From a virus (lineage: Duplodnaviria; Caudoviricetes): a DNA stretch of 61,044 nt. The position numbers and the translations under genes are program-made. A model generated the notes under the pieces. It saw nothing but the letters and a program-made list of their open reading frames with translations. It had not been told where the DNA came from and searched no databases. The stretch spans positions 1-61,044 of IMG/VR virus record IMGVR_UViG_3300025133_000003. One strand, 5' to 3'. Positions 797 to 61,044 of this stretch are shown piece after piece (within the stretch, counting starts at the first letter, position 1; each line of letters starts with the position of its first letter).

Positions 797-803
797 TCAC
801 TCG

Positions 804-3388: not shown

Positions 3389-3753
3389 GCCGCACGCTCC
3401 TTCCGGAACTGGCCCAGGGTGCGGGTCAACGTGCCGACGTAGCAGTCGCGCTCGACCAGGGGCAGCATGCCGCCCATGCCCGAGGCTCCGGCCAGCTCGC
3501 TGAGCATGAAGTAGCCCAGCTCACCGCATCCGGGGAGCAGCTCAGCCCATCCGAAGAACTCGTAGTCGTCGCCGACCACCTGCCCTTCCAGCGCGTACCA
3601 GACGGCACCGCTGTAGGGGGAGAAGTACTTGACGCCTACAAGGCGGTCCTCGGTCGGTCCGGTCCCGTCGCCGCTGCCCATGGCGGGCATCGCAGCGATG
3701 AGATCGGCCGGGAGGAGCTTGTGCCCTCGCGTCCGTTCGTTGTGTTCATTCAT
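3385..3753 (-). CDS. DUF2958-like protein
   Basis: VKYFSP..WYALE..FFG..ELGYFxLSEL..VERDxY pattern. Confidence 0.8.
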   Translation of the reverse strand: MNEHNERTRGHKLLPADLIAAMPAMGSGDGTGPTEDRLVGVKYFSPYSGAVWYALEGQVVGDDYEFFGWAELLPGCGELGYFMLSELAGASGMGGMLPLVERDCYVGTLTRTLGQFRKERAA

Positions 3754-3858
3754 GGTGTGTCTCACTGTGGTGCCGATCCCCACCGATGGGGATCGGGAAG
3801 CCGATCGGCTTCCGCCTGCCCCCGACCGCAAGGCCGGGAGCAGGGTGGAAGGTGATCA
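3754..3858 (-). promoter_or_regulatory. Three-hairpin element E5
   Basis: Palindrome 3775-3794 with CCGA spacer; otherwise identical to E3. Confidence 0.9.
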
Positions 3859-4239
3859 GATGCGATGGACCGCCGCGACGCCGCCGTTGACCGGCTCGAT
3901 GAACAGCGGCAGGGAGCCCAGGTTCACCTCGTGAACCGAGGGGGCCTCCCAACTCCCGTACATGGACAGCGTGATGCAGTCGTCGTCCCCGTGGGTCCGG
4001 GGCTCCATGAGGATCGTGAACAGGGCCCCTTCAGACCAGCCGTAGGGGTCGCCCTCGACGACGTAGCCGTGTTCGTAGTCCCCGAACATGCCGGAGCACC
4101 CGCGGGTCAGGTTCTCAGCACGCTCCTTCTCAGTCTCCGACGCGCCCGACCGCAAGGAGCCGTAGCTCCGTCCGACCAGGGAGTTGGAGCGGACGATCGC
4201 CAAGGCGACGTCCATCGCAGTGATAGTGGTGTTGCTCAA
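3856..4239 (-). CDS. Hypothetical protein (TTG start)
   Basis: Fills the space between E5 and E6; start context ACACCACATTG. Confidence 0.65.
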   Translation of the reverse strand: MSNTTITAMDVALAIVRSNSLVGRSYGSLRSGASETEKERAENLTRGCSGMFGDYEHGYVVEGDPYGWSEGALFTILMEPRTHGDDDCITLSMYGSWEAPSVHEVNLGSLPLFIEPVNGGVAAVHRI

Positions 4240-4345
4240 TGTGGTGTCTCACGATTCCGATCCCCATCAGTGGGGATCAGGAGGCGCTGGCCTCAACACT
4301 GCCCCCGAGGGAAGCCCGGGGGCAGGGGTTGAACTCAGCGGTCGT
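4240..4345 (-). promoter_or_regulatory. Three-hairpin element E6
   Basis: Palindrome 4259-4278, GAGG..CCTC, TGCCCCCG..CGGGGGCA. Confidence 0.85.
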
Positions 4346-4348: not shown

Positions 4349-4888
4349 TCACGCAGCCTCCGACCGGACGTCCAGCGGGTGGGCGTACGACCAGAGGGCC
4401 GGGTGGTCCTCGGGCCAGACGTCCCACGTCGAGCCGTCCTCGCAGACGATCTTGTCGCCTTCGCGGACGCCGATCAACGCACCCGCCTCACGCCAGTAGG
4501 ACGTGTAGGCCAGCAGGCTGACCATGCTCAAGCCGGTCCAGCTGGGGTTGGCCTGCTGGTACTTCGCCATCGTCTGGAAGACTCCCTGCGCGCCCTGGGC
4601 GAACATCGCGACCGAGTCGGCAGGCAGAGGCCCGACGACGTCGTCGCAACGGTCCGGGTTCAGGGACAGCAGCGGGGAGACCCAGGACAGCTGCACCATC
4701 ACGCGGAACGGGATCCCGACCTTGTCGATCAGGATCCCGCCCTCGGCAAGGCGGTGCAGGTACGGCCCAAGCCGCCGATCAGGGATGCTGACGCTGACCT
4801 CAGAGGACTCGTCGCGTCGGTACTTGGCCGACACGGAGCCCTGCGAGGAGCCACGCTCCAGCACGGGGTAAGGGATTTCGTCATTCAT
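4349..4888 (-). CDS. Hypothetical protein
   Basis: ATG directly after element E7. Confidence 0.7.
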   Translation of the reverse strand: MNDEIPYPVLERGSSQGSVSAKYRRDESSEVSVSIPDRRLGPYLHRLAEGGILIDKVGIPFRVMVQLSWVSPLLSLNPDRCDDVVGPLPADSVAMFAQGAQGVFQTMAKYQQANPSWTGLSMVSLLAYTSYWREAGALIGVREGDKIVCEDGSTWDVWPEDHPALWSYAHPLDVRSEAA

Positions 4889-4992
4889 GGTGTGTCTTTC
4901 GTGGTGCTGATCCCCATCAGTGGGGATCAGGAGGCCGCTGGCCTCAATCCTGCCCCCGACGTGAGCCGGGAGCAGGGGTTGAACTCAGCGGT
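4889..4992 (-). promoter_or_regulatory. Three-hairpin element E7
   Basis: Palindrome 4909-4928; mosaic of E1 and E6 parts. Confidence 0.85.
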
Positions 4993-5030: not shown

Positions 5031-5234
5031 TCACGACTGACCCTCGGGCACGTCACCGAACAACGGCAGCTGCACGGCGACACCACGGGGCATGAGGTCC
5101 AGGCAGGCCGTGGCCTGCTTGTACATCTCGGCGTCCACGTAGGAGGGATGCAGGGCATCTTCGATGATCTGCTCCTCCTGTTCGCGGCTGGCGTTCCGGG
5201 GGATCTCGATGGTTACTATTCGGTGTGCGGTCAT
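5031..5234 (-). CDS. Small hypothetical protein
   Basis: ATG after ACACACCAC of E8. Confidence 0.6.
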   Translation of the reverse strand: MTAHRIVTIEIPRNASREQEEQIIEDALHPSYVDAEMYKQATACLDLMPRGVAVQLPLFGDVPEGQS

Positions 5235-5339
5235 GTGGTGTGTCTCTCCAAATCCGATCCCCATGGGTGGGGATCGAGAGGCTGTGGCCTCACGCCTGGG
5301 CAGGAGGGATCACTCCCCCCTGCCCAGGGTGTCAGGTCA
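5235..5339 (-). promoter_or_regulatory. Three-hairpin element E8
   Basis: Palindrome 5256-5275; hairpin 5295-5328 with GUGA loop on the minus strand. Confidence 0.85.
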
Positions 5340-5429
5340 CTGCTGCTGATCGTCCAGCTGGGGCCCGCGCCGCCGAATGAACGGCAGCCCGAGTCCGAGC
5401 ATGACGCAGGCCCAGGCGAACCAGGTCAC
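5337..5429 (-). CDS. 30-aa putative membrane peptide (VTWFAWACVMLGLGLPF...)
   Basis: GTGA overlap with upstream stop; own stop abuts E8. Confidence 0.4.
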   Translation of the reverse strand: MTWFAWACVMLGLGLPFIRRRGPQLDDQQQ

Positions 5430-5701
5430 GAGCGGCCCCCGGTGCGGATCCGGGTCATGCCCGGGTTGCGGCCGAGGCGCGGCCGGCGGGTGATCCGGGG
5501 ACGCTTCCGCGTCTGGATCACGCTGTACGCCACGTCGATCACGAGCCGATCCCCATCGGTGGGGATCAGCAGGGGCGCTTCGTTCGCCGCCGTGAGATCG
5601 GGCGCGGGGGATCGCGTCACGTAGCCGTGAACGATCGAGGCGAAGCCCGAGGCGAAAAACATGCAGATCAGGACGATCGGGAGGATGACGGTGTGTTCCA
5701 T
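5426..5701 (-). CDS. Small membrane protein (N-terminal TM)
   Basis: ATG after E9; hydrophobic N-terminus; internal palindrome 5548-5567. Confidence 0.6.
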   Translation of the reverse strand: MEHTVILPIVLICMFFASGFASIVHGYVTRSPAPDLTAANEAPLLIPTDGDRLVIDVAYSVIQTRKRPRITRRPRLGRNPGMTRIRTGGRS

Positions 5702-6031
5702 GTGGTGTGTCTCCGATCCCCATGGATGGGGATCCTGTTGGTGGTGCCAGCCGATCCCCATCCATGGGGATCCAACTGGCGGGAACCGATCCCCATCCAT
5801 GGGGATCGAGAGTCCGGGATGGACTCACCCCTGCGCTGGATCTGTGCCCACCCCACGCAGACTTTCATGCGCAGGCGGGTGCCCAGGGGCAGGGGTGAGC
5901 CAGGGGGACGGATCCCCCTGGACTCGGTGGTGACGTGTGTCTGTGGTGGTGAGACCGTGCTGGTTTGCATGGTCTGGAGCAGTCCGCTCCCTCCTGCCCC
6001 CGAGCGGACCCGTGGGCAGGGTGGCAGGTGA
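5702..6031 (-). promoter_or_regulatory. Stacked elements E9 (three palindromes) and E10 (variant sequence), no gene between
   Basis: Palindromes 5715, 5753, 5788; E10 hairpins 5952-5975, 5976-5990, 5993-6020. Confidence 0.75.
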
Positions 6032-6172
6032 CTACGCGATGGCGTGGAACTGGACGGCGAGGCCGGCATCCACGTGAACGTGGGGCACGACCAGAATGAA
6101 CGACGCACGGGCCGGGGGATCCGGGGTGAACGTCGCGGGGCCGAAAGACCAGGGGAACATGATGTCGGGCAT
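6032..6172 (-). CDS. 46-aa hypothetical peptide (MPDIMFPWSFG...)
   Basis: ATG after ACACCAC of E11; TAG abuts E10; not in the supplied ORF track. Confidence 0.5.
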   Translation of the reverse strand: MPDIMFPWSFGPATFTPDPPARASFILVVPHVHVDAGLAVQFHAIA

Positions 6173-6310
6173 GTGGTGTACCTCGTGGTGTGATCCCCAT
6201 GGATGGGGATCGTGGTGTCAGTCTCCAGCGGACTCAGCAGCCATCCAGCGGACCGGATGACTCTTGGGTCCGGCCGAGGGACCGAAGTCCCCCGGCGCGG
6301 ATGGTTCCCC
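6173..6310 (-). promoter_or_regulatory. Element E11 (branched third domain)
   Basis: Palindrome 6192-6211; cUUCGg hairpin 6278-6291 on the minus strand. Confidence 0.75.
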
Positions 6311-7272: not shown

Positions 7273-8110
7273 AAGTCCTCCGTGGTGCGTCCCTGTTAGC
7301 TGCGGCAGCCCGGGACCGTGGCTGCCGCCCTGATCCCCATGGATGGGGATCGAAGTCTGAAGGGCTCCGCGCACCACACGCACAGCGCCGGCATGTATCA
7401 CCGACTGCCCTTCCGTCTGTCGTTGTCCACGGAACCAAAGCCCCGTGGTTTCACACTGCCGACCCAACGGGGCCGACACCGATTCATGACTTGCTTCGCT
7501 GTGCACGTGCTTTGACCGACGAACGTCGGCTGCCTTCGTGCGGACACTGCATCCCCGATCCGTTAGGAAACCGGGTCCGGTCGGCAGCCCTGAGGACTGC
7601 CAGTCACTGTCAGTGAACTACTGCGCGGCCCCGTGCGATTGGGGCGGCCTACAGCGGCGGATGTTTCAAACGCAACGGCCGAAGCCGTCATCCGCTTGCG
7701 CCCCCCGGATCGGCCGGAGGGTCGCGCGCTGAACAGGGGTCAACGGGACCGTCCATGGTCCCTGCCCTGCTCTCCTGTATCCACGATGACTCCCTCGGCA
7801 CTGTCTACCCCGTGTCACACCGTCGTGGCTCCGGCAGCCTCCGCTGCCCTTACTCATCGGCTAGCCGCTTGTGCGCGGTATGCCGGCCTTGTCGTGCTCT
7901 GCAAGGGGTCGGGGACTCGCTTGTCCCGTCCCCCGGTTCCGGTCTGCGTGCTGCTCTCCTCCGGGGCCGGTCCGCATCGCGGGGGCCGGCATCGCCCGGT
8001 AGGTCATGAGGGAACACGCGTCGCCGTAGCGTCGTGTGGGGTGCCCGTTGTCGGGGGGGTCATCATTCGGTTTTCAAGGAACGCTGCCGGTTCGTTGCCA
8101 CCGGCCCACT
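7273..8110 (-). ncRNA. Candidate long structured leader/ncRNA (includes partial element E12, palindrome 7332-7351)
   Basis: No credible ORF; many short stems, cUUCGg hairpin 7675-7688 on the minus strand. Confidence 0.35.
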
Positions 8111-8148: not shown

Positions 8149-8237
8149 CACCTAAGTGCCTGGAATTGCGGGGGTTTTTCAGTTGTTGACAGGGGCTCGA
8201 TCCCCATCGGTGGGTATCCACCTAAGTACCTGAAATC
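8149..8237. repeat. Direct repeats CACCTAAGTRCCTGRAAT flanking a degenerate palindrome (8199-8218)
   Basis: Copies begin at 8149 and 8219. Confidence 0.7.
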
Positions 8238-10170: not shown

Positions 10171-10332
10171 TCCGCGACTTGGTGATTCGCTGAGTGTATA
10201 CCAAGTCCTGATAGGGCATTGTTAGGGACCAGAACGCGGAACCCCCGGCCGACAATTAAGCCGACCGAGGGCCACCACGAGGGGACACACCACATGAACC
10301 CCTCGTCGGCAGAATAACGAATCGGAGTGGTT

Positions 10333-15673: not shown

Positions 15674-16235
15674 AGACCCCACGGCTGACGCGGGCGATGC
15701 GCTCGTCGACCTGCATCACCTTGCGGACGGAGTTGATCGGGATCTTGGTGCGCTCAGCCACCTGGCCCGCGCGCATGGCCCCGTTCGTTCTCAGCAGCGA
15801 GGCGATCTTGTCGGCGTTGGTCTTGGGCTTCCGATCCCCACTGGTGGGGATCTTCTGGGGATCCTTGGCCCGCTTCACCATGTCGGACTTCACCCCGGGC
15901 TTGAGCTGGGCGTCGCGGTCCGTGGGGATGATGGCGGTGCCCTCGCCCGCGTAGCGGTCCAGAGCCTTCTCCATCGACTTGCGCTCGTACTCGTCGGCGT
16001 AGTGCTTGCCGCGGAGCTCCGGCGGCGACTCCTTGGGCCAGGTGCCCCCGGTCCGCTTCATCACGGGCAGCTCGCCCTTGGGGAAGGCGCGCACGGCACC
16101 GTGACGGCCGCAGATGGAGCAGAGGATCGCGCGGAACCCCTCACCCTTGAGCAGGCCGTAGTGGTTGACGCGGAGGAAGAGGGAGAACTGCTCGCCGCAG
16201 AGTTCGCTGGCGCAGTTGAAGCTGTAGAAGGGCAT
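15654..16235 (-). CDS. FmdB-like zinc-ribbon plus C-terminal HTH protein
   Basis: MPFYSFNC...C...CSICG; follows portal as in many podoviruses. Confidence 0.75.
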   Translation of the reverse strand: MPFYSFNCASELCGEQFSLFLRVNHYGLLKGEGFRAILCSICGRHGAVRAFPKGELPVMKRTGGTWPKESPPELRGKHYADEYERKSMEKALDRYAGEGTAIIPTDRDAQLKPGVKSDMVKRAKDPQKIPTSGDRKPKTNADKIASLLRTNGAMRAGQVAERTKIPINSVRKVMQVDERIARVSRGVYAFAQS

Positions 16236-52688: not shown

Positions 52689-53545
52689 CGGATCGCCGCC
52701 GCGGCCCGAGCTCGGCTCTGGCCATGGGTCGGGAAGATCACGACCAGGGGCTTGGCCCGAGGCGCAACGACCTTGCGTTTCCCAGTCCGGCCGAAACAGA
52801 GCGCGCAGTCGGCACAGCCGACCCGAGGCTCTTCACGCAGCCGCTCAGCAATCGTGGCAGGGCACGGAGCCGCATCGGCGTCGATGCCCTGGCGAGCCAG
52901 GTTGGCCTCGACGCCCTGCTTGACGACCGCGGCCTGCCGGGGGGTGAAGAACCCCTCATCAACCGCCACGCTGTACGCCACGTAGGACCAGTCCTCGCGG
53001 ACGGCCCGAAGAACGTCCGAGAGCTTGGTCACCGAGGCGAGCAGCGTGAAGTTGTCAGGCGCGCAGTCCCGAGCCGATCGGGCCAGCGTCGTGAACGGGA
53101 GGTGGGTGTACTTCCACCCCCGCAGGTCGGGCCGCTTGATGGCACCGGCTACGAGGGAGGCGAGGTACAGCGCCCCCTGCTCATCCGCCGCGTCTCCCGC
53201 GATGTCAGCGCGGAAGCGCGTCGGGCGCCGTCGCGTCGAGAAAGGGAGCCCGAGGATCCACTCGAACGGATCGAAGGTCATGCCTCCGGCCCGCTCGCTG
53301 TGGATCCTGTCGTTCCCCTCTTCGCCGTAGCAACCGTTACCCAGGAACGCGCAGTCCCCAGGACATGTGTCACCCACCTTGCGATAGGTGGTGAACAGGC
53401 GCGTCCCGAAGGCCCGCAGCTTGGCAGTCAGCTTCTTGTTCGCAGTCGGTCCCTGCGACCCGAAGCCGGACACCTCGGGGACGATCGCCCCAGCGAGGAT
53501 CAGGCTGACGAGGAACAGGAACCGAATTCGTGTGGTGTGGTTCAT
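52685..53545 (-). CDS. Cys-rich, radical-SAM-like / Gp88-like phage protein
   Basis: TCPGDC..GCY, R..AGD, YTH, CPA, CADCALC, F.THG motifs. Confidence 0.55.
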   Translation of the reverse strand: MNHTTRIRFLFLVSLILAGAIVPEVSGFGSQGPTANKKLTAKLRAFGTRLFTTYRKVGDTCPGDCAFLGNGCYGEEGNDRIHSERAGGMTFDPFEWILGLPFSTRRRPTRFRADIAGDAADEQGALYLASLVAGAIKRPDLRGWKYTHLPFTTLARSARDCAPDNFTLLASVTKLSDVLRAVREDWSYVAYSVAVDEGFFTPRQAAVVKQGVEANLARQGIDADAAPCPATIAERLREEPRVGCADCALCFGRTGKRKVVAPRAKPLVVIFPTHGQSRARAAAAIR

Positions 53546-53662
53546 GGTCTTTCTCCATGTTTGTGGTGGTGGAGCTCGAGGTGCAGAACGCACCCCGACG
53601 AACTCCTGAAAGCAGGCGAACGCACGGGTGCATCCGCCTGCTTGTCAGCAGACCGTCAGGTC
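53546..53662 (-). promoter_or_regulatory. Divergent hairpin element E13
   Basis: CACCAC leader; AAGCAGGCG..CGCCTGCTT stem with minus-strand G-U pairs; CAGGT boundary. Confidence 0.55.
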
Positions 53663-53682
53663 GTTGGGTTGTTGGGGGTGGG

Positions 53683-53961
53683 CTAGATGGTGACGGTGAT
53701 CGCGGCGATCACGTTCTCCACCTTCAGGCCCATGCGGAGGGACGAGTCGGCTTGTTCAGCCCACTTGACCCAGTCACGAAGGCGGGGGCTCAGCTCCCAC
53801 GAGGCGGCACGAGCCAGCACCCGGACGAACTTGTCGAACTTCTCGACGTCGTCCTGGGCGCCGCGCAGCGTGCCGTACTTTGTGCGCGCCTCGTCGGTCT
53901 CCCGCTTGGTGTTGGAGTGGATGGCCCGAGCTCCATCGAAGCGGTCGTATGACGTGGTCAT
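53683..53961 (-). CDS. Hypothetical protein
   Basis: ATGA overlap with methyltransferase. Confidence 0.6.
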   Translation of the reverse strand: MTTSYDRFDGARAIHSNTKRETDEARTKYGTLRGAQDDVEKFDKFVRVLARAASWELSPRLRDWVKWAEQADSSLRMGLKVENVIAAITVTI

Positions 53962-54875
53962 GCCACCAGCTCCAACTCCTCGAGGAACCACTTGCCCACA
54001 GCGGGGGTGATGGCCTCGCCCAGGAACCCCAGAGCTTCTCGCTTCGTGCTGGGGAGCATGTGCGAGTCCGGGGCACCCATGCCCTTGCGGTACTCACCGA
54101 TGTTGAGCATGCGGCTGCGGTTCCCGTCGACGACACGCCAACCGTCCACCGGGGTGATGGTCCCGATGGGCCGGTCGATGTCCCGAGCGATGAGGCCGCT
54201 TCCGCTGCTGTAGTACGGGGCCAGGAACTGATCCCAACCCTTCACCCGGCCGTCGACGATCTGGCCCATGACCCGCTTGCTGTAGACCTTGCTGCCCAGG
54301 TCGAACCACCCGTCCGAATCCCAGTCGACGACCGACCGGAACGGCACGTGATCCATCTTGGGCGTCTCCAACCACAGCGGAGCCTTGCTCCGGGTCAGGA
54401 CGATGAAGGTCCGGACCCGGTTCTGAGGCACCCCGAAGTCAGCGGAGTCCACGACGTGCGGGGCCACGGCGTAACCCAGGGCGTTGCAGCCGTGGACCCA
54501 CGTGTCCCAGAGGATCCAGTTGCGAACCTCCGGCACGTTCTCCAGCAGGGCGAACTGAGGCTGCACCACCTCCAGCGCTTCGATGACGTTCATCATCGTG
54601 AAGCGCAGCTTGTCGTGCAGCTTGCTCCCCTTGCCACGGGCCCTCGTGTACCCCTTGCACGACGGACTCGCGATGAGGCCGTCGACCTTCGGGATCTGGC
54701 TCATGTCCAGCAGCCGAATGTCCATGCACTCGGACACAGCGTTGGGGAAGTTCATCGCCCAAATCGCACAGGCCAGGGGCCAGTGGTTCACGCCGTACTT
54801 GACCTCCATGCCCGCCTGCCGTGCCGCAGCGGAGAAGAACCCCGCGCAGCAGAACAGGTCAGCGATGGTGGTCAC
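53958..54875 (-). CDS. C5 cytosine DNA methyltransferase
   Basis: DLFC.AG, SPSC, ENV, GVPQNRVR motifs. Confidence 0.9.
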   Translation of the reverse strand: MTTIADLFCCAGFFSAAARQAGMEVKYGVNHWPLACAIWAMNFPNAVSECMDIRLLDMSQIPKVDGLIASPSCKGYTRARGKGSKLHDKLRFTMMNVIEALEVVQPQFALLENVPEVRNWILWDTWVHGCNALGYAVAPHVVDSADFGVPQNRVRTFIVLTRSKAPLWLETPKMDHVPFRSVVDWDSDGWFDLGSKVYSKRVMGQIVDGRVKGWDQFLAPYYSSGSGLIARDIDRPIGTITPVDGWRVVDGNRSRMLNIGEYRKGMGAPDSHMLPSTKREALGFLGEAITPAVGKWFLEELELVA

Positions 54876-55105
54876 TCCCGCTCCAGCTGCTGGCGCAGCC
54901 AGACCAACTCGCCGCAGGCGTCGATGATCAGGTGGCCGCGCTGGCAGATCCGGTCCGCGGTGTCCCGCTCAGTCAGTGCCTCGGCCAGGGTGGGGACGGT
55001 GGCCCAGGCGGTCTGACCAAGGCGGCGGATGGTGTAGGGGGCGGTGGGGTGTTCGACGTCGGCATCGGCTCCCGCCCTCGTGGTTTTCAGTGTGTGTTTT
55101 TCCAT
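54872..55105 (-). CDS. Hypothetical protein
   Basis: ATG after E14. Confidence 0.6.
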   Translation of the reverse strand: MEKHTLKTTRAGADADVEHPTAPYTIRRLGQTAWATVPTLAEALTERDTADRICQRGHLIIDACGELVWLRQQLERE

Positions 55106-55217
55106 GTGGTGTCTCACTTCTCCGATCCCCATCAGTGGGGACCGGGAAGCTGATCGTTGAGCGATCAACTCCAGCCTGCCCAGGAACGTGAGCCCCTGGG
55201 CAGGGTTGCAGGTGATC
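55106..55217 (-). promoter_or_regulatory. Three-hairpin element E14
   Basis: Palindrome 55124-55143 (one mismatch), CCTGCCCAGG..CCTGGGCAGG. Confidence 0.85.
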
Positions 55218-55299
55218 GAACAGTTCCAGCTGGCCGATGGGCGGAAGGATCTCCACCCTGACCAACCGGCCGTCCGGCAGCGCGCCGTAGCTACCTAGG

Positions 55300-55497
55300 T
55301 CATCGCGGGTCCTCACACTCGGGGCAAACCCAGCAGCCCTTGACCATCCTCCACCCAAGGATCCGAGCCTCCTTGAGTCCCTCCTTCTTTGTGAGCCCGA
55401 TCTGCATGTCGATCATCTCGGTCTCACCGCAGGCGTCGCAGGTCGAGAGAACCTCAACCGTCGCCACCGTCCAGACCTTCGGCTTTCCGTCTTCCAT
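55300..55497 (-). CDS. Small Zn-ribbon protein
   Basis: CDACG..GW..WVCPEC; GAGGAG SD. Confidence 0.65.
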   Translation of the reverse strand: MEDGKPKVWTVATVEVLSTCDACGETEMIDMQIGLTKKEGLKEARILGWRMVKGCWVCPECEDPR

Positions 55498-55511
55498 CTT
55501 ACTTCTCCTCG

Positions 55512-56357
55512 CTATCGGGCACGGTTTCGCTCATACCAACGCTCCAGGTGAGCGGCCCGGTGCTGCCAGGGGTTGTGCCCGCTCTCGGGCCGGCACTCCC
55601 CCCAGTTGGTGCAATACCGAGCGTCCAGGTCCCAGGCCTGGGAGTCCATCGAGGCGACCCGGTCGTGCTGCTTGAGCGCGTCCAAGGCCTCCCCCTTGAC
55701 TCCGAACAGATGCACCGAGACGTGGTCCGGCAGGTACCCCATCAGCGCGGTCACGATGTGAACGATCTCGCGGGTCCGGTGCCGCCGGCAGACCGAGCCA
55801 ATGCCGATCAGCCGCGGCCACTCGCCCTCGAGCTCCTTGGTCATCATGTCCATACACGTCAGGTACTGGCTCATGCTCCAGCCCTGGATCACCGGCATCG
55901 GATCAGCGATGTGCCAACCCTCGTACCGGTAGTCCGCGGCCACTGCACGGCACTCGCCCAACAGCTGCACGGTCCGCTCGATGTTGGGCCACGGCGGCGA
56001 GGACTGCTCCGGTTCGCAGGGCACGTCCATCTGCGCCCACCAGGCCCAAGGGACCTGGCCAGCCAGCCAGACGTAGTCCTCCACGGTCCAGGGGAACTTC
56101 CCCCCGAGCGTGAAGCCCCCGCAGTCCAGAGCAACGTCGCCCCCGTAGGTCGCCGCAAGGACCCGGTCGTGGGAAACCCACCCCGGCTCTTTGCGGGTCT
56201 TGACCCACAAGCGGTTCGCACTGACCAGCCCCGGGTACCCCATGGTGCGGGCCCACAGGCTGAACTTCCCAGTCGGATCAGGAACCCCCGCCCGAATCAA
56301 CGGGCGGGGGTAGTCGGCAACGGTCGGAACGTACGGGCTGTGCCCGTAGCTCCTCAT
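55512..56357 (-). CDS. dpdA: DpdA-like (tRNA-guanine transglycosylase fold) DNA deazapurine-insertion enzyme
   Basis: ALDCGGF, MD.PCEP, PVIQG, IGIGSVCRR, HLFGVK, SMDSQAW. Confidence 0.75.
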   Translation of the reverse strand: MRSYGHSPYVPTVADYPRPLIRAGVPDPTGKFSLWARTMGYPGLVSANRLWVKTRKEPGWVSHDRVLAATYGGDVALDCGGFTLGGKFPWTVEDYVWLAGQVPWAWWAQMDVPCEPEQSSPPWPNIERTVQLLGECRAVAADYRYEGWHIADPMPVIQGWSMSQYLTCMDMMTKELEGEWPRLIGIGSVCRRHRTREIVHIVTALMGYLPDHVSVHLFGVKGEALDALKQHDRVASMDSQAWDLDARYCTNWGECRPESGHNPWQHRAAHLERWYERNRAR

Positions 56358-56389
56358 GTGCCCTGACTCGAGAGGAAGGCGCGGCTGCG

Positions 56390-56605
56390 TCACTCCTTGT
56401 CGAACGCGCCGAGCAGGATGACCCCGACCGGGACGGCTCCGTCGCCGGAGATCTTCGAGTCGACCCACTCCAGGCAGTCGTCATCCTCAGCCTCTTCATG
56501 GACCTTGGTGGCGAGCTTGACGGCCGCCACGGGGTCAGCCGCATCGACCTCCATCTCCCCGACCTCGACGCGCAAGCGCTTGAACGTGACGATCCACTTG
56601 GGCAT
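56390..56605 (-). CDS. Hypothetical protein
   Basis: GGAGG SD, coupled. Confidence 0.6.
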   Translation of the reverse strand: MPKWIVTFKRLRVEVGEMEVDAADPVAAVKLATKVHEEAEDDDCLEWVDSKISGDGAVPVGVILLGAFDKE

Positions 56606-57378
56606 CACTCACCTCCCTTGCGTTCGATGAGCTCCAGCACCTCGACGCCGTCGATCAGCTCAAGCGGATCGGTGTCGCCGTGCGCCCCCTGCCAGAGCCC
56701 CCACAGGATCTGCGGGAGGCGCCGCCAACCCATCACCCGAGCCATCTCGTCAACGTCGATGGTGACGACAGCGGACGCCTCGATCCGAACCACGATGGCG
56801 TCGGCCTCGGGGTTGCTCCACCCCTGCGACCAGAGCCGGTAGTCCATCTCGGCCACGTTGGCCTCAGCGCCGCACAGGGCGCACTCGGGACCGACGTTCT
56901 CGATGAAGTCGGACTCGCACGTGCAGCGCCAGACGCGCGGCGGAAGCCGCACCTGTCCGACCTGCTTGTCGCTGGGACCAGGACCGACCCCGCCGTCAAC
57001 GGGGCAGCCCCCGTTGCAGTACAGGACGTCCTGTCCCCCACTCTCGCGGGACGAGTCCAGGGCGATCCACCCGTCTCCACCCTCGTCGACGTGCGTCAGC
57101 TGCGTTCCGCAGAAGTAGCAGGGCATCTCAAGGCCGTAGGGGGCGTCGTCGTACTCGATCGTGATCGGGCCGTCGATGTCGCTGGGCTCCATGCCCAGGC
57201 CGTTCTCCGCAATGGAGTCGGCGAAGGCCGACAGCAGGGCGTGCTTCAGCTGCTCCTCGGTCGGGTTCTCACCCGCCCCGAGGTAGACGTTGGCGTTGCC
57301 CCTGCCCAGGTCGAACACCACCTCGACCGTTCGCGGTCGGGTGACGTCGCCCGTCAGGGACTTGTTCTTGTTCTTCAT
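56605..57378 (-). CDS. Multi-domain hypothetical protein with Zn fingers
   Basis: ATG after E15. Confidence 0.7.
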   Translation of the reverse strand: MKNKNKSLTGDVTRPRTVEVVFDLGRGNANVYLGAGENPTEEQLKHALLSAFADSIAENGLGMEPSDIDGPITIEYDDAPYGLEMPCYFCGTQLTHVDEGGDGWIALDSSRESGGQDVLYCNGGCPVDGGVGPGPSDKQVGQVRLPPRVWRCTCESDFIENVGPECALCGAEANVAEMDYRLWSQGWSNPEADAIVVRIEASAVVTIDVDEMARVMGWRRLPQILWGLWQGAHGDTDPLELIDGVEVLELIERKGGE

Positions 57379-57483
57379 GGTGTGTCTCTCATGTGGTGCT
57401 GATCCCCATTGGTGGGGACCAGGGAGCCAGCAAGCTCCAGCCTGCCCACGAGGAGTCCCCGTGAGCAGGGTTGCAGGTTGCTA
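57379..57483 (-). promoter_or_regulatory. Three-hairpin element E15
   Basis: Palindrome 57401-57420, GGAGC..GCTCC, CCTGC..GCAGG. Confidence 0.85.
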
Positions 57484-57511
57484 GCGGGTCAGAGCGCGGC
57501 GATGAGCTGGG

Positions 57512-58420
57512 TCATGACGGCTCCTTCGCGTTGAGCAGCGGCTCGAGGAAGCCGATCAGGGTCCAGCCCTCGGGCGCCCCGTACTCATCGGGGAAGTCGC
57601 AGCTGGACGAGCACAGGAAGTTCCCGTCCCAGCCCTGATCGATGGCGGCCTTGTGCCACTGGCGGTACGCCTCGGCGTCCTCCAGCCCGGGCGCGGTCGC
57701 ATCCAGGGAGAGGAAGGTCTGCCCGATCATGCCGGTGTCCGCGATCAGCAGCCGCCCGTCCACCAGGGTGGCGAACGTCTGGAGCAGCAGCCGCCCGTCC
57801 ACCAGGGTGGCGAACGGCCAGATGCAGACCTTCTCCTGCCACAGCTCGCGCTTCGCAGACGTCGGCCACGACGGCTCCTCCGGGAAGTAGTGGATCACGA
57901 TGGGCTGGTCGACGTTCTCGTCCCAGTTGGATTCCAGCGCCCGCTTCAGATCGATGCGGTGCGTGTAGTCCTCCTGGTTGATGTCGGCCCAGACCTGGAC
58001 CGTGAGGCCGTCGAACAGATCGACCACCAGGACCGGCGGGCCGTTGGTCATCCCAGCGGCGCCGTAGCCGTCGAGCGACAGGAACAGCTGACCGCCGATC
58101 ATCTCGACCTTCCCGGTGACTTGCATGTCGGTCGCCGAGTCCTCAAGGCCGAACTCCAGCCCCGCCCGCTCAAGGTGCTGCTCCAGCTCATCGACCCGGA
58201 CCTTGGCCTCCCAGCTGGAGGTCCCAACGCGGCCCAGGTAGACGAACGTGTCGTCAGCGTCCATCACGGTCAGCTCGTTGGCGGCGAGCGCCTCCGAGGC
58301 GACGTCAGCGGCCCAGTCGTCGAAGGCCTGGTCGGGACCGAAGGGGGCGTCACCGCCCTCTGCGATCTCGTCCCGGGCCGTGATGATCCGAGCCAACGCT
58401 TCGGTGAGGTGGCAGGTCAT
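57512..58420 (-). CDS. Multi-domain hypothetical protein with 39-bp internal duplication
   Basis: GGAGG SD; FATLVDGRLL repeated (57746-57816). Confidence 0.7.
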   Translation of the reverse strand: MTCHLTEALARIITARDEIAEGGDAPFGPDQAFDDWAADVASEALAANELTVMDADDTFVYLGRVGTSSWEAKVRVDELEQHLERAGLEFGLEDSATDMQVTGKVEMIGGQLFLSLDGYGAAGMTNGPPVLVVDLFDGLTVQVWADINQEDYTHRIDLKRALESNWDENVDQPIVIHYFPEEPSWPTSAKRELWQEKVCIWPFATLVDGRLLLQTFATLVDGRLLIADTGMIGQTFLSLDATAPGLEDAEAYRQWHKAAIDQGWDGNFLCSSSCDFPDEYGAPEGWTLIGFLEPLLNAKEPS

Positions 58421-58836
58421 CCCAACACCTCCCGGACCTTGCTCTCCAGCGCGGAGGGCAGCTCGAACCCCTCGGGGATCCGCTGCTCCAACATCTCCCA
58501 CACCTCCACGAAGAGGGGCATGGCGACATGGTGAGGCACGTAGTGCTTGCCGCGGATGGAGACGGACTCGGGGAACTTGCTGAAGTCCACGTCGAGATCG
58601 CCCTTGACGATGGCCAGGAGGTGGCCCGCCGGCAGCGTCGGCAGCATTTCCGCCAACGCGTACAGCTTGGAGGCCATCTCCGTGGTCTCGGGGTTGAACG
58701 GGATCCCGCCCCGATGGAGCAGGTTCCGCAGCATCCCCGGGCCGTGGCAGAGGATGAGCTTGATGCGGCCATCCTCCCGCGTCTCCTTCGGGGCATCGAC
58801 CCGATAGGTGACCGTGTAGGTCTTTTCATTGTTCAT
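58417..58836 (-). CDS. Hypothetical protein
   Basis: ATG after E16. Confidence 0.7.
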   Translation of the reverse strand: MNNEKTYTVTYRVDAPKETREDGRIKLILCHGPGMLRNLLHRGGIPFNPETTEMASKLYALAEMLPTLPAGHLLAIVKGDLDVDFSKFPESVSIRGKHYVPHHVAMPLFVEVWEMLEQRIPEGFELPSALESKVREVLG

Positions 58837-58946
58837 GGTGTGTTTCTCAATCGGTGGTGTGTACGGCTAGCCCCGCCGTGGGGTTGGAGCACACGCTCCC
58901 GGGTGCCCAGGACCCGGAGGCCCTGAGCACGACGGCAATGTGCGCC
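58837..58946 (-). promoter_or_regulatory. Three-hairpin element E16 (variant)
   Basis: AGCCCC..GGGGTT, GGAGC..GCTCC, hairpin 58903-58930 with cUCCGg loop on the minus strand. Confidence 0.75.
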
Positions 58947-59315
58947 TCACTCGTAGTGGATCGTCCCGGTGTCCTCGCGCAACTGCCCGAGGTGGAAGCG
59001 CCATCGCCAATGCGTGCCGTCCTCGCCGGTCATGCAGAGGTAACTGCCCTCCTCGACGAACGGCGCAAGCGCATTGAACAGACGGTCCTCGTCCCCCAGC
59101 TTCTCCCCCTCGAAGCGGAGGCCGATGAGGTCGCCGTTGTCGGAGTGAACCTCCGCCGACCAGCGCCAAGCCTCCAGAGCGCTCACGAGGTCGTGCGGGT
59201 GGCCCTCGGGGACCCAGGAGCCCCCGTTGAGGGCGGCGATGGCAGCGCCGGCCTCGTTGAACCGCTCTTTGCGGATCTTGAAGACGGTATCGCCTTGGCT
59301 CATGTAGTAACCCAT
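58947..59315 (-). CDS. Phage hypothetical protein (MGYY...LAPFVEEGSY..GEDG..WRW)
   Basis: ATG after E17. Confidence 0.75.
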   Translation of the reverse strand: MGYYMSQGDTVFKIRKERFNEAGAAIAALNGGSWVPEGHPHDLVSALEAWRWSAEVHSDNGDLIGLRFEGEKLGDEDRLFNALAPFVEEGSYLCMTGEDGTHWRWRFHLGQLREDTGTIHYE

Positions 59316-59406
59316 GGTGTGTCTCAATCGTGGTGCTGATCCCCATCAGTGGGGATCAGGGAGCGGACTGCTCCTCGGATCCCGGGACCGAAGCCCCGGG
59401 ATCTCA
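59316..59406 (-). promoter_or_regulatory. Three-hairpin element E17
   Basis: Palindrome 59338-59357; hairpin 59378-59403 with cUUCGg loop on the minus strand. Confidence 0.85.
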
Positions 59407-59569
59407 GCAGTGGTCCGTTCGTCCAGGCCGCACGGAGCGGACGATGTACTCCCCCAGGTTGGGGAAGTGCCATCGACCCTCGTACGACAAGCACGCCACG
59501 GCCGTACGGACGTAGACGTGCTGGTGGCCGTCGCGGGCGGTGGTCGCCTCGATGACGACCGGCACGCGA

Positions 59570-59953
59570 TCAGGGGGGCGGGGTGGTGGAGTCCGTCGCT
59601 GCATGGCTGTTGTCCTTGAACTTCCGCTTGCCGGGACGCGCTTCGGCGTAGGCGTTGAGGAACTCCCGCAGGGGGAGCTCCAGCCACTCCTCCAGCCCCT
59701 GTCCGATGGCGCTGATCTCCCAATGGAGACCCTCGGCCATGTCGGGCAGGCGCTCGAAGCACTTCCCGTCGTAGTCCCGCACGAAGAGGCCGCGTGCCTT
59801 GAGGGCGGCGAAGAACGAACGGCGCCAGGCGTTGTACGGGTTGAGCCCGCAGCCTGGACAGGTCGTGTCGTCACCCTCGTGCATCGCGCCCTTCTCAATG
59901 CAGGCGGTATTGCAGTACACCCCCTTGGGGGGTGTGCTTGTCTTGGTGTCCAT
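59570..59953 (-). CDS. Hypothetical Zn-finger protein
   Basis: AAGGAG SD within E18. Confidence 0.65.
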   Translation of the reverse strand: MDTKTSTPPKGVYCNTACIEKGAMHEGDDTTCPGCGLNPYNAWRRSFFAALKARGLFVRDYDGKCFERLPDMAEGLHWEISAIGQGLEEWLELPLREFLNAYAEARPGKRKFKDNSHAATDSTTPPP

Positions 59954-60060
59954 GGTGCTCCTTGGTCGTGGTGTATTCAAGCGCCGTATACGCTTGAGGC
60001 AGAGCCGATCGGCTCATGTGTACCGGCGAGGAGGAGCCCCGCCGGTACAACATCAATCGA
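59954..60060 (-). promoter_or_regulatory. Three-hairpin element E18 (sequence largely replaced, fold kept)
   Basis: Hairpins 59977-59997, 60002-60015, 60019-60049; CACCAC leader. Confidence 0.75.
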
Positions 60061-60288
60061 TCAGCGTTCGCTGACGGTGACGTCGAAGGACGTCACCTCG
60101 CCGTCCTCGTTCCGCAAGTGAACGGTGAAGACGTGGCACGGCTTGGATGGCCCGTCGTCGGTGTGGGTGTAGCCGCCCTGGGACGTCCACAGCTCCAGAT
60201 CGACGCTCTGAGCCAGCGTGGCCGCGTCGTCGCCGTCCATGTAGTCGCGCAACTGGTCGGACAGTTCACGGAGGGTCAGATCAGCCAT
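60061..60288 (-). CDS. Hypothetical protein
   Basis: GGAGG SD. Confidence 0.65.
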   Translation of the reverse strand: MADLTLRELSDQLRDYMDGDDAATLAQSVDLELWTSQGGYTHTDDGPSKPCHVFTVHLRNEDGEVTSFDVTVSER

Positions 60289-60793
60289 TGCCGTCCTCCC
60301 GCAGCAGGTAGAGGCGAGACCGCTTTGCCAGATTGGCCCGCAGATCCTCGTCCTGAACCACGTCCCGGACCAGCTGGTCGGTGACCTCCCACCGGAAGGC
60401 GGGATTGTCCTGGGCCTTGTACTCCTTGGCCTGGTGGACCAAGCGGTTCAACCGCAGCGCGGCCACGGACGCCGATGCGTATCGGAACCTGTACGAGATC
60501 CCGGTCTCGGTGTCCTTGAGCCGGTCGCGCTCGAGGATGAACCGGGGCCCATCCTCGGTCAGCTGATCCCAGTGCCATTCGCAGCCGTCCTCGTCCAGCC
60601 ACTTGTCCTTGCCGTCCGGAAACCTCTCGGTCATCTGATCGTCCCAGAACATCTTGGTCTCCCCCGCATACTCCCAGAGCAGCTCTCCTTCAGAGGTGCG
60701 GGAGAAGTTGGTAGGGGAGCACCCGCGGGTACTTTCAAGGGTCCCGAGGATCTCGGATCCGGTGGGGCTGTACAGGGTGACGTCGTTGCTCAT
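60281..60793 (-). CDS. Hypothetical two-domain protein
   Basis: AAGGAGG SD, ATGA overlap. Confidence 0.7.
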   Translation of the reverse strand: MSNDVTLYSPTGSEILGTLESTRGCSPTNFSRTSEGELLWEYAGETKMFWDDQMTERFPDGKDKWLDEDGCEWHWDQLTEDGPRFILERDRLKDTETGISYRFRYASASVAALRLNRLVHQAKEYKAQDNPAFRWEVTDQLVRDVVQDEDLRANLAKRSRLYLLREDGNG

Positions 60794-60990
60794 GCTGCCT
60801 CCTTCTCGCTCATGTGGCGGGGAGGGTACAGCTGAGCCAGCAGCGCAACCCAGTGCTGGGGGTCTTCACCCTCGCGCCACGAGCTCCGCATCAGCCGGCC
60901 GATGGCCAGGGAGATGCGGAACCGGTCGTCGAGGCCGTGGGTGGCGACGGCCGCCCACTGACCCCAGGTCAGTTTCCGTACTCGTTTCAT
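60790..60990 (-). CDS. Hypothetical protein
   Basis: ATG after ACACACCAC of E1. Confidence 0.6.
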   Translation of the reverse strand: MKRVRKLTWGQWAAVATHGLDDRFRISLAIGRLMRSSWREGEDPQHWVALLAQLYPPRHMSEKEAA

Positions 60991-61044
60991 GTGGTGTGTC
61001 TTTCGTGGTGCCGATCCCCATCAGTGGGGATCAGGAAGCCGATC

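Follow-up and report, generated by a model that had tools for sequence, protein, structure and literature searches.

A repeated, covarying cassette with two alternative folds and an open start region between early genes of an uncultured marine temperate phage

The leftward early operon on the minus strand of an uncultured marine temperate phage carries about 17 copies of an intergenic cassette, each made up of a folded RNA module with an open landing site for ribosomes downstream of it. The cassette has no protein-coding capacity, has two alternative computed folds, and is a real module matching no described RNA family. Its function is predicted from this architecture: we give about even chances to a cis-acting module of the early mRNA that would act as an intercistronic unit of processing, stability and translation.

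The repeat is confirmed to lie far beyond chance. In the window—the whole analysed stretch of 61,044 nt—the palindrome GATCCCCA-N4-TGGGGATC, here called hp1, occurs 19 times at <=1 mismatch versus 0 for the reversed control, corresponding to 18 unique sites because positions 1-40 repeat 61005-61044. With a covariance model trained on 14 copies, 17 of 17 matches at E <= 4.3e-4 fall on the minus (mRNA) strand, the 14 being recovered by construction and three more being found with them; seven of these matches lie within 53546-61044 (Table 1). Rough GC3-based gene calls place cassettes in the gaps of >35 nt between genes of the operon, starting at 7272 and running across the record ends as far as 53545; elsewhere its genes overlap or lie 14-32 nt apart. 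The stop codon of the upstream high-GC3 open reading frame falls within cassette columns -10 to +12 in 12 of the 17 copies, and exactly at column 1 in five.

Table 1. Cassette copies and related motifs in the window, with covariance-model (CM) scores. The copies in 53546-61044 are 53543-53658, 55103-55218, 57376-57483, 58834-58945, 59313-59417, 59951-60063 and the leader at 60988-61044.
Feature	Coordinates	Strand	Evidence and details
Reference cassette	1990..2097	-	CM 118.9 bits, folds, motif; stop TGA 2097-2095; P0 5' strand 2096-2086; hp3 2083-2054; P0 3' strand and hp2 5' arm 2052-2042; hp2 2052-2035; hp1 2034-2013; CACCAC 2011-2006; GAGACACACC 2002-1993; ATG 1992-1990
Cassette	3751..3858	-	Covariance model; 97% identity to 1983-2098
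Cassette	2565..2672	-	CM 105.8 bits
Cassette	4886..4990	-	CM 94.2 bits
Cassette	4238..4340	-	CM 73.9 bits; start probably TTG 4239
Cassette	5232..5342	-	CM 77.5 bits; hp3 15 bp, GUGA loop
Cassette	694..799	-	CM 76.1 bits; hp1 degenerate, one base missing
Cassette across record ends	1..90	-	CM 82 bits; 1-40 repeats 61005-61044; leader, CACCAC and hp1 at 60988..61044, continuing at 41-90; leader and ATG 60988-61004
Diverged cassette	59951..60063	-	CM 72 bits; all stems replaced, CACCAC retained; different hairpin in hp1 slot
Cassette	59313..59417	-	CM 80.2 bits; hp3 loop c(UUCG)g
Diverged cassette	58834..58945	-	CM 63.7 bits; UCCG loop; different hairpin in hp1 slot
Cassette	57376..57483	-	CM 107.2 bits; hp1 G.U-compatible change (GGUC...GAUC)
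Cassette	55103..55218	-	CM 88.6 bits; hp2 11 bp; same hp1 G.U-compatible change as 57376..57483; sole copy with the three-hairpin state as MFE
Weak diverged cassette	53543..53658	-	CM 22.7 bits; without hp1; leader CACCACCAC...GAGAAAGACC ATG
Degenerate cassette without start codon	5935..6034	-	CM 62.9 bits; 5' end is stop TAG 6034-6032
Weak cassette match with tandem hp1	5699..5875	-	CM 33.5 bits (match 5763-5875); hp1 x3 at 5788-5807, 5753-5772, 5715-5734, then leader GGAGACACACCAC, ATG 5701
Weak atypical cassette	6170..6310	-	CM 22.3 bits; UUCG hairpin, second hairpin, hp1 6192-6211, CACCAC leader
Lone hp1 palindrome	5548..5567	not assigned	Inside CDS of gene 5701-5426
Lone hp1 palindrome	7332..7351		About 60 nt upstream of the operon's first gene (ATG 7272)
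Lone hp1, one mismatch	8199..8218		1.77-kb non-coding region, directly after TTGACA (8187-8192)
Lone perfect hp1 palindrome	15833..15852		Within CDS of terminase/portal operon
Leader-like motif	10273..10296	+	CACCAC...GACACACCAC ATG; only one on plus strand

Covariation, a conserved G.U pair and the strict co-orientation of all copies support the original prediction that the repeat is a structured RNA of the mRNA strand. In the hairpin hp3 (12-15 bp), a structure-blind MAFFT alignment gives 92.9% pairing, with 11 of 13 pairs changing on both sides and the G.U pair present in 14 of 14 copies; a 17-copy alignment fitted to the model gives 95.4%, with the G.U pair in 16 of 17 and the adjoining G-C pair in all 17. 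Between flanking Watson-Crick pairs the minus strand shows 26 G.U wobbles, no A.C and two other mismatches, so the predicted strand specificity of the wobbles holds for hp3, whose stems have internal mismatches on the plus strand; since G.T wobbles are also tolerated in single-stranded DNA, this asymmetry shows a strand-specific fold, not strictly an RNA. The listed sequencing runs that contain this DNA include none of RNA. In the diverged copies 58834-58945 and 59951-60063, most stem bases are replaced and the hairpins and CACCAC kept, as had been described. The reported loops are likewise present (UUCG at 59377-59404 and about 6278-6291, UCCG at 58903-58930, GUGA at 5295-5328); as an argument for the minus strand they fail, because hp3 loops read UNCG or GNRA on that strand in 5 of 17 copies versus 6 of 17 reading GNRA on the plus strand (UCAC four times, UUGC twice). 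Whole-element folding energies, compared for 10 of the 17 copies, are divided: the minus strand is more stable by 5.5-11.1 kcal/mol in five, the strands lie within 0.5 of each other in four, and the plus strand is more stable by 2.7 kcal/mol in one, so that the anticipated asymmetry appears in one half of these copies and is missing from the other.

A further covarying helix, P0, pairs the stop-codon flank with the 5' arm of hp2; it had been missed, and together with the resulting two-state fold it is new here. On the MAFFT alignment 88.9% of P0 cells are paired versus 63.3% in shuffles (0 of 500 reach the value), a control that may overstate covariation because all copies are paralogues in one genome; sliding the partners preserves this relatedness, yet yields a far lower 23-47%. 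On the same alignment the covariation score is 0.687 versus 0.231 and seven of nine pairs change on both sides, and the result is the same on alignment A4, which was not fitted to P0. For its part, hp2 folds as a local hairpin in all 16 copies tested; its 5' arm comes in 12 different versions, and the mean z is -3.0. P0 and hp2 are mutually exclusive, and the cassette therefore has two near-isoenergetic folds. In state A, P0 forms between the flank and the 5' arm plus loop of hp2, extending hp3 to an irregular hairpin of ~22 bp with two internal loops, while in state B hp3, hp2 and hp1 form three separate hairpins. The MFE structure is state A in 13 of 14 copies; when the first 14 nt are blocked, all 14 fold to state B, at a cost of 0-2.8 kcal/mol in nine of them. 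Start-region accessibility does not differ between the two states in any of the 13 copies compared (0.55-0.74 when free, 0.53-0.76 when blocked), so the computation shows no effect of the switch on the gene that follows.

The leader downstream of the hairpins is unstructured and A/C-rich (CACCAC ... GAGACACACC), with only a minimal GAG-type Shine-Dalgarno, and is followed by ATG and A-rich first codons. Relative to 49 other genes, the 16 cassette genes have a higher A fraction in codons 2-6 (0.45 vs 0.21, p = 3e-7), a higher unpaired probability from -18 to +15 (0.64 vs 0.40, p = 3e-8) and a C-rich, G-poor leader (p = 5e-5); of the roles proposed beforehand, ribosome loading thus gains direct statistical support from these open A/C-rich starts. 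The leader core has 11 matches at <=2 mismatches, all on the minus strand, versus 1.9 expected, and stands at a constant 0-2 nt from the ATG and at a variable ~13 to 26 nt from hp1.

Under another reading, the cassette is a palindromic repeat of the MITE, REP or Correia kind, selfish or spread by recombination, that has multiplied in this one genome's spacers; the hairpins would then be a by-product of palindromic DNA, and the repeat would be of use only as a substrate for gene shuffling. This would agree with the confinement to one genome—the cassette was not found in IMG/VR, metagenome contigs or 185,579 species genomes, and is absent from five related phages, so it is not needed for such phages—with two copies being 97% identical over 116 nt, and with the ORFan nature of the adjoining genes. 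We nevertheless find it quite improbable, given that the stems diverge by compensatory change while the G.U pair and two competing helices are kept, that all copies are co-oriented with transcription, and that the 5' end is locked to stops and the 3' end to starts with adapted first codons; an informal look noticed no transposase, terminal inverted repeats or target duplications.

If the cassette is instead an intercistronic unit of the early mRNA, a ribosome terminating on the upstream gene would cover the flank and force state B, so that terminating ribosomes should toggle the two folds. With the flank free, the slightly more stable state A would form and serve as a site for double-strand-specific (RNase III-type) processing or as a 3'-end-protecting hairpin, so that the long transcript would be cut into stable, gene-sized pieces in the manner of T7; such a processing or stabilising role, one of those proposed beforehand, would suit the irregular 22-bp hairpin. 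The hairpin block would insulate the gene start from upstream ribosomes and structure, and the open leader would load ribosomes afresh. As a sequence-specific protein site, hp1 could be one factor's handle on all early genes, bound by a stoperator-like repressor on DNA or by a protein on the RNA hairpin just before the start region.

By analogy, the systems close to the cassette are the RNase III sites of T7 and the SAS/ESAS of Cluster K. The T7 sites (R0.3, R0.5, R1.1 and others), ~10 in number and reported by Dunn and Studier in 1983 and in later work, reportedly leave gene-sized mRNAs with a protective hairpin at the 3' end. The cassette and the T7 sites alike are repeated, irregular hairpins some two helical turns long, with internal loops and without a U-tract, between early genes; they share no sequence relation, there are 17 copies here versus ~10 in T7, and the cassette has in addition hp2 as a competing hairpin, hp1 as a palindrome of invariant sequence, and a fixed translation leader. 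In trp-type leader-peptide attenuators the position of the ribosome selects alternative hairpins, and here too a stop-adjacent segment competes with a downstream segment for a partner, but there is no leader peptide, no U-run terminator and no computed effect on the next start region.

In line with the original prediction, no U-tract follows any cassette copy, and a terminator scan of 1-10400 found 3 sites versus 2.9 expected, none at a cassette. Processive antitermination, in which a put-like RNA would modify RNA polymerase at each passage, had also been proposed; adjacent hairpins on the nascent early transcript, devoid of coding capacity, would suit it, and beyond this resemblance nothing speaks in its favour. 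Put sites are single elements directly downstream of early promoters, whereas the 17 copies here are intergenic, one per gene junction, with not one behind a promoter; terminators to overcome are not visible in that scan, and no Rfam family matches the cassette even at E <= 5, which makes this reading very improbable.

The behaviour of hp1 is different, a point missed by the earlier prediction. In this perfect 8-N4-8 palindrome the stem is invariant, while eight forms of the centre occur among the 18 sites; the flanking pair is C-G in nine cases, U-A in three and U.G in two, both stem substitutions in cassette copies are G.U-compatible, and other hairpins occupy its slot in diverged copies. 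It is also found alone in coding DNA and in the control region, as well as in a tandem triplet (Table 1). Being invariant in sequence but variable at its centre, and standing alone in both coding and control DNA, hp1 looks like a protein site, possibly a repressor operator on DNA; the solitary sites and the tandem triplet fit a DNA operator better than an RNA role.

These properties of hp1 also favour a unit of terminator, operator and promoter that would act chiefly at the level of DNA and transcription, PeSL-like as in T4-type phages and likened to the early region of the Streptomyces phage phiC31. On this reading the upstream transcript would end at hp3 and hp2 with no need of a U-tract, hp1 would serve as operator for the repressor, and the conserved leader would be a phage-specific promoter with a very short 5' UTR. 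The temperate nature of the phage, with an integrase and three HTH proteins, and a leader motif that also precedes a regulator gene on the other strand would agree with it. We regard it as a real if minor possibility: sigma-70-like promoters in 1-10400 number 0 (0.7 expected), no cassette has a hairpin-plus-U terminator, the leader core is fixed to the ATG and not to hp1, and translation is indicated by the A-rich first codons and the openness of the start region. Such a unit would leave the conserved G.U pair and the P0/hp2 alternative without a role, and a phage RNA polymerase was not detected, a 2915-aa protein having no Pfam or PHROGs polymerase match and no PDB match at all. According to PMC2839356, PeSLs are stem-loop regulatory units between non-essential early ORFan genes and may serve as recombination substrates; the cassettes likewise separate ORFan genes, but the PeSLs described there have a functional terminator and a strong promoter of sigma-70 type, and the scan of 1-10400 found neither signature at a cassette.

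The same giant ORF, which lies in the virion module of a podovirus-type genome, and the conserved hairpin 13-26 nt before early gene starts would suit an N4-like reading in which a virion RNA polymerase, injected with the DNA, uses hp1 as its DNA-hairpin promoter and all else in the cassette is ancillary. This is the least probable of the readings, given the missing polymerase signal in Pfam and PHROGs, PHROG matches of the giant protein only to an unknown-function family and an endolysin-annotated family, 18 hp1 sites of which some lie inside genes, and a temperate phage.

Stoperators of Cluster A mycobacteriophages are asymmetric 13-mers, and the phiC31 repressor binds conserved inverted repeats. 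By analogy both are possible models for hp1. In them, many copies of a single repressor site are scattered over the short intergenic spaces of a temperate phage's lytic operons, a distribution that hp1 resembles; it differs from stoperators in being a palindrome of 20 bp that lies within a covarying RNA fold. The stoperators of L5 are mentioned in PMC3203893.

PMC3203893 also describes SAS/ESAS. This motif, conserved and asymmetric, precedes by a few bases the ATG of non-structural genes separated by >50 bp from the gene upstream, in one orientation and in 11-19 copies per genome; about half of the SAS are preceded by an inverted repeat at a short variable spacer, and the motif is phage-group-specific. 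Its role still needs experimental verification, according to PMC12699233. The cassette is similar in its start-proximal motif, single orientation, preceding inverted repeat and phage specificity. The SAS consensus is absent here, with 1 match at 2 mismatches versus 3.2 expected, and SAS as described contains a full Shine-Dalgarno core, in contrast to the minimal one of the leader. The authors of PMC3203893 report that ESAS departures do not support RNA pairing, whereas the cassette shows covariation in three helices and keeps one G.U pair.

The plus-strand leader-like motif heads a 7-codon mini-ORF upstream of an HTH gene.

The cassette, the repeated intercistronic element of the leftward early operon, is interpreted here, with moderate confidence for the reading as a whole, as an RNA-level module of the early mRNA. 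The window, 61,044 bases long, is an entire IMG/VR virus record; it has a 40-base direct terminal repeat and a G+C content of 66.7%, and one side of it carries a portal and an adaptor of P22/SU10 type, a terminase-like gene and, in the virion module, an ORF of 2915 aa. The leftward minus-strand operon runs from near position 7272 across the record ends and on to about 43714. Its distal genes encode DUF7227, serine recombinase-like, ERF, SSB and RusA proteins together with a tyrosine integrase and an Xre-type HTH protein, which makes the phage temperate. The proximal 15 kb, where the cassettes lie, holds about 28 genes that are mostly small ORFans, together with a C5-cytosine methylase and a DpdA homologue; one gene in the record (57512-58420) contains a 39-bp tandem duplication, 97% identical, at 57743-57816.

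The palindrome GATCCCCA-N4-TGGGGATC, which forms the hairpin hp1, occurs 19 times at no more than one mismatch (18 unique sites after discounting the terminal repeat), while a reversed-palindrome control gave no occurrence. Most copies follow a recurring order on the minus strand: stop codon, flank, hairpins hp3, hp2 and hp1, CACCAC, the leader core GAGACACACC and ATG. A covariance model built from 14 copies yielded 17 matches with E values up to 4.3e-4, none of them on the plus strand. Of these, 14 were bound to be recovered, having gone into the model, and three (5763-5875, 53543-53658 and 6170-6310) are additional; the next-ranked matches are two weak ones on the plus strand that overlap minus-strand copies. 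The repeated element that the original prediction had placed at 53546-61044 is therefore real, with seven of the significant matches in that interval. The upstream stop codon, ending a high-GC3 ORF, falls within cassette columns -10 to +12 in 12 of the 17 copies, and exactly at column 1 in five. Frame offsets from stop to ATG at 16 junctions are 0 in four, 1 in four and 2 in eight; these mixed offsets, together with in-frame stops in most junctions, rule out a stop-codon read-through that fuses neighbouring genes. At 5334-5429, a 30-residue membrane-like peptide (VTWFAWACVMLGLGLPFIRRRGPQLDDQQQ) can be read in another frame, its GTG start overlapping the TGA of gene 5701-5426 and its stop falling at column 4 of the next cassette.

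Covariation among the copies points to a conserved fold. The hp3 stem is 12-15 bp long and G+C-rich in 17/17 copies; in a structure-blind MAFFT alignment 92.9% of its cells are paired, 11 of 13 pairs show changes in both partners and a single pair is always G.U (14/14 copies), and in the 17-copy model-fitted alignment 95.4% are paired, with G.U in 16/17 copies and an adjacent G-C in 17/17. Jointly, hp3 and hp1 are 89.3% paired in the MAFFT alignment; sliding the 3' partners by 1-3 columns lowers this to 39-50%, and none of 500 shuffles attained such values. Where Watson-Crick pairs stand on either side, the non-Watson-Crick positions of hp3 on the minus strand comprise 26 G.U, no A.C and two others, so that the central claim of the original prediction, namely that A-C mismatches on the plus strand are G-U pairs on the minus strand, was correct. 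Since G.T wobbles are tolerated in single-stranded DNA too, what this asymmetry proves is a strand-specific fold, of which RNA is the economical reading given its position in the sense strand of the operon.

Two other strand arguments are weaker. The UNCG and GNRA tetraloops named earlier are present, but they do not single out a strand: 5/17 hp3 loops are of these types when read on the minus strand and six when read on the plus, the commonest loops (UCAC in four copies, UUGC in two) being GNRA in the latter reading, and tetraloops were dropped as strand evidence. The proposed comparison of folding energies, carried out on 10 copies, favours the minus strand by 5.5-11.1 kcal/mol in five; in four the strands lie within 0.5 kcal/mol and in one the plus strand is better by 2.7. 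Both strands fold far better than shuffles, as would any palindromic DNA.

A further helix, P0, had been missed. When full spacers are folded freely, a flank of 11-12 nt from the upstream stop pairs with hp2, both its 5' arm and its loop, and hp3 is enclosed by the resulting helix. In the MAFFT alignment P0 is 88.9% paired, compared with 63.3% in shuffles (0/500 reach the observed value) and 23-47% when slid, with a covariation score of 0.687 versus 0.231; seven of nine pairs change on both sides, a U-A pair is invariant, and the outcome was the same on a 17-copy alignment not fitted to P0. Covariation, the G.U pair kept in hp3 and the restriction of significant matches to the minus strand lend support to the proposal of a structured RNA on the mRNA strand. 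The hairpin hp2 is real too, forming locally in all 16 copies tested with 12 different 5' arms, and because it shares nucleotides with P0 the cassette has two exclusive folds: state A, in which P0 (P0a of 4 bp and P0b of 5 bp) and hp3 (13 bp) make up about 22 bp, broken by two internal loops, next to hp1, and state B, in which hp3, hp2 and hp1 form three adjacent hairpins. In 13/14 copies the fold of lowest energy is state A; when the first 14 nt are made unavailable, all 14 go to state B, at a cost of 0-2.8 kcal/mol in nine. As the upstream stop codon lies at the 5' end of the cassette, a terminating ribosome would cover the P0 flank, and we infer from this stop-codon geometry that terminating ribosomes would toggle the fold.

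The RNase III sites of phage T7, intercistronic hairpins at least about 20 bp long whose stems are broken up by internal loops, are the closest known system in working principle, and the modelled, covariation-supported state A, with P0a, P0b and hp3 separated by two internal loops, has such a shape. Judging from its size, irregular shape and position directly after the stop, state A would act as a processing or 3'-protecting hairpin whenever the flank is free of ribosomes, and the hairpin block would keep upstream ribosome traffic apart from the next start. The P0 flank (e.g., 2086-2097) is pyrimidine-rich and presumably resembles the 3' tail of 16S rRNA, and its partner within the 5' arm of hp2 is rich in purines and similar to a Shine-Dalgarno sequence.

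Cassette-led genes also have a characteristic start region. Allowing two mismatches, the leader core GAGACACACC has 11 matches, on the minus strand only, versus 1.9 expected; it lies 0-2 nt from the ATG, and its distance from hp1 is variable, at about 13 to 26 nt. Relative to 49 other genes the leader is C-rich and G-poor, and in 16 cassette-led genes the A fraction of codons 2-6 is 0.45, compared with 0.21 in the 49 others (p = 3e-7), the corresponding G+C fractions being 0.45 and 0.63. The predicted unpaired probability from -18 to +15 is 0.64 versus 0.40 (p = 3e-8), and the Shine-Dalgarno sequence is GGAG or GGAGG in genes without a cassette and only GAG or GAGA in cassette-led ones. Open, A-rich start regions with minimal GAG/GAGA sites lend support to the earlier suggestion of ribosome loading on starts with weak Shine-Dalgarno sequences; the open A/C-rich leader and first codons would allow such loading de novo. 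Translational coupling by sequestering of the next start is ruled out, as start-region accessibility is equal with the flank free or blocked in 13/13 copies. The leader motif also appears once on the plus strand (10273-10317), where it heads a 7-codon mini-ORF about 30 nt upstream of an HTH_20 gene (10327/10334-11817); the start of this mini-ORF falls within a hairpin loop closed by a CGAGGGG/CCCCTCG stem.

Unlike hp2, hp3 and P0, which vary freely by compensatory change, hp1 has nearly invariant 8-bp half-sites, its central 4 nt taking eight forms across the 18 sites. Sixteen of these unique sites belong to the leftward early operon and the other two are at 8199 and 15833; several stand apart from a complete cassette (see the table). 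This sequence pattern would most simply mark a site recognised by a dimeric DNA-binding protein, e.g., a prophage repressor, in a stoperator-like arrangement; as with stoperators, hp1 is conserved in sequence, stands at the principal early control region and recurs along the lytic operon of a phage that is temperate, with integrase and HTH proteins. GATC density is 22 per kb in cassettes versus 9 per kb elsewhere (2.4 times), hp1 being the main source, and GATC shows no bias genome-wide. A CRISPR array, whose palindromic repeats are separated by spacers of a regular 25-40 nt, is excluded by irregular hp1 spacing (35 nt in a triplet to about 39 kb) and by the genes between cassettes; within the two clusters, start-to-start distances among the copies listed are mostly 240-2300 nt. 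A two-mismatch version at about 49980-49998 lies at the N-terminus of the ERF gene and reads I-P-I-S-G.

Features associated with hp1 and with the surrounding gene content
Feature	Position	Remarks
Tandem hp1 triplet without the remaining cassette	5715-5807	
Lone hp1	7332	60 nt upstream of the first gene of the operon
Lone hp1, one mismatch	8199	Next to TTGACA in the 1.77-kb non-coding region
Lone hp1 in coding sequences	5548-5567, 15833-15852	Same reading frame, I-P-T-x-G-D-R, in two unrelated genes
Candidate hp1 repressors (HTH proteins)	44062-44835, 9044-9865, 10327-11817	
C5-cytosine DNA methylase and DpdA (7-deazaguanine DNA modification) homologue	53958-54875 and 55512-56357	Among cassette-separated early genes
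2915-aa ORF	30845-39592	Virion module

Within cassettes, hp1 shows RNA-type behaviour as well: the pair flanking the palindrome is C-G in nine, U-A in three and U.G in two, both stem substitutions are G.U-compatible, and in diverged copies the hp1 slot is filled by unrelated hairpins. Recognition as DNA and as RNA may both apply, and in the RNA-level module hp1 would allow a single factor to act on every early gene in the same way. A DNA-level explanation, in which each cassette is a terminator-operator-promoter unit, is rather unlikely. The G+C-rich hairpin of an intrinsic terminator is there in hp3, but no U-tract follows hp3 (hp2 comes next), hp2 (then hp1) or hp1 (then G-CACCAC), and a hairpin-plus-U scan of 1-10400 returned three sites versus 2.9 expected, none of them at a cassette, in line with the original statement that the element is not an intrinsic terminator. 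Nor does a sigma-70-like promoter mark the cassettes, a scan of the same interval giving none; promoters peculiar to the host or to a phage polymerase would escape it.

Between the early operon and the HTH genes, 1.77 kb (7273-9043) hold no convincing ORF and could be a control region, origin or attP. This region contains an inverted repeat with 72-nt arms (8494-8565 / 8594-8665, 71% complementary), and a direct repeat, CACCTAAGTrCCTGrAAT (8149-8166, 8219-8236), flanks the TTGACA and the one-mismatch hp1.

Other explanations start from the repeat or from the hairpins themselves. That the cassettes are a selfish repeat of the MITE/REP type seems quite improbable, given that all are co-oriented and that no transposase is present among the proteins scanned. 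The put element of phage HK022 is an RNA of two hairpins that follows an early promoter immediately and acts on RNA polymerase; a put-like antitermination RNA retains only a small share of the probability, as the cassettes are placed differently, at 17 gene junctions, and lack an Rfam match. Rfam gave no match in the whole window at gathering thresholds and, at E <= 5, only chance hairpin (miRNA-model) matches far below threshold. A hairpin promoter of the N4 type, likewise allotted little, lacks support because the 2915-aa protein, considered as a virion RNA polymerase and rejected, shows no polymerase signal in Pfam, PHROGs or PDB: it has no above-threshold Pfam family and no PDB sequence match, and its PHROG matches are weak, to a family of unknown function and one annotated as endolysin.

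In layout, the RNA-level module comes closest to SAS/ESAS in Cluster K mycobacteriophages, elements that combine a motif at the starts of non-structural genes behind long spacers with an inverted repeat upstream of it (PMC3203893, PMC12699233), and whose function was not yet tested according to a 2025 survey (PMC12699233). The SAS motif is described in PMC3203893 as lying 3-7 nt before the ATG of non-structural genes, after gaps >50 bp and in one orientation, often with an inverted repeat upstream; the cassette is placed in the same manner, its core 0-2 nt before the ATG, on the minus strand only and with hp1 directly upstream. It differs in that the 13-bp SAS consensus given there (PMC3203893) is missing, with one match at two mismatches, in the giant ORF, versus 3.2 expected. 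PeSLs (PMC2839356) are, like the cassette, set among ORFan early genes, and are unlike it in their strong sigma-70-like early promoter and terminator signatures.

Long phage early operons must yield many independently expressed small genes from one transcript, a task for which only a handful of solutions is known, namely the RNase III sites of T7, the PeSLs of T4 and, as yet without an explanation, SAS/ESAS in Cluster K phages. The cassette is a compact, many-copy example in which RNA fold, stop-tied competing fold, wobble pair, palindrome and start region are readable from sequence, and it offers a structural hypothesis for SAS/ESAS-like elements. Its 17 natural variants constitute a testbed for hairpin punctuation, mRNA processing and Shine-Dalgarno-poor initiation acting jointly, and for whether one palindrome can serve both DNA and RNA; the cassette could also supply portable insulator parts for high-G+C hosts. 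A bolder and unlikely form of the proposal is a natural insulator, namely an RNA with two states gated by ribosomes, which a dedicated phage or host factor recognising the stem sequence would cut, or bind at hp1, with hp1 doubling as a DNA site of the prophage repressor. If true, each early ORFan would be expressed from its own standardised Shine-Dalgarno-poor start and all could be switched jointly after transcription; such insulators are known so far mainly from synthetic biology.

Among IMG/VR, metagenome contigs, 185,579 species genomes and five relatives, the cassette is confined to this phage, and all structural evidence is consequently drawn from paralogous copies of one genome. The palindrome alone gave 10 single sites in IMG/VR, a chance level, and palindrome plus leader gave one chance match in metagenome contigs (51.8% G+C, single copy) and none in contigs of the 185,579 species genomes. 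Searches of IMG/VR with one early protein and with the portal, each used singly, had no match; a search with a portal alignment recovered 74 relative loci at 38-52% identity, and the same alignment had no match in genomes. Five near-complete relatives, with terminases 52-58% identical, have no multi-copy palindrome and a best covariance-model score of at most 19.4 bits, compared with 63-119 bits for the 14 strong copies. A near-match search among isolated phages found none, and among the literature matches listed for the palindrome halves GATCCCCA and TGGGGATC in phages, none is related by title. The marine sequencing runs listed with near-identical copies of the phage are all DNA, none RNA; four of them contain near-identical low-depth contigs, with stems that carry no informative variants. 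Joints and loose ends at repeats were dropped as evidence of recombination, being read as cross-mapping between paralogous copies. In two marine runs (X5, X8), contigs join the 5' part of gene 58947-59315 (59089-59315) to a different flank, with an ordinary purine-rich Shine-Dalgarno sequence upstream of the ATG instead of a cassette, which suggests that this gene also occurs in another genome without it. An unrelated 12-mer repeat, TCAACCTTTAAA with its variants, is present in one relative in up to nine copies, which are possibly iterons.
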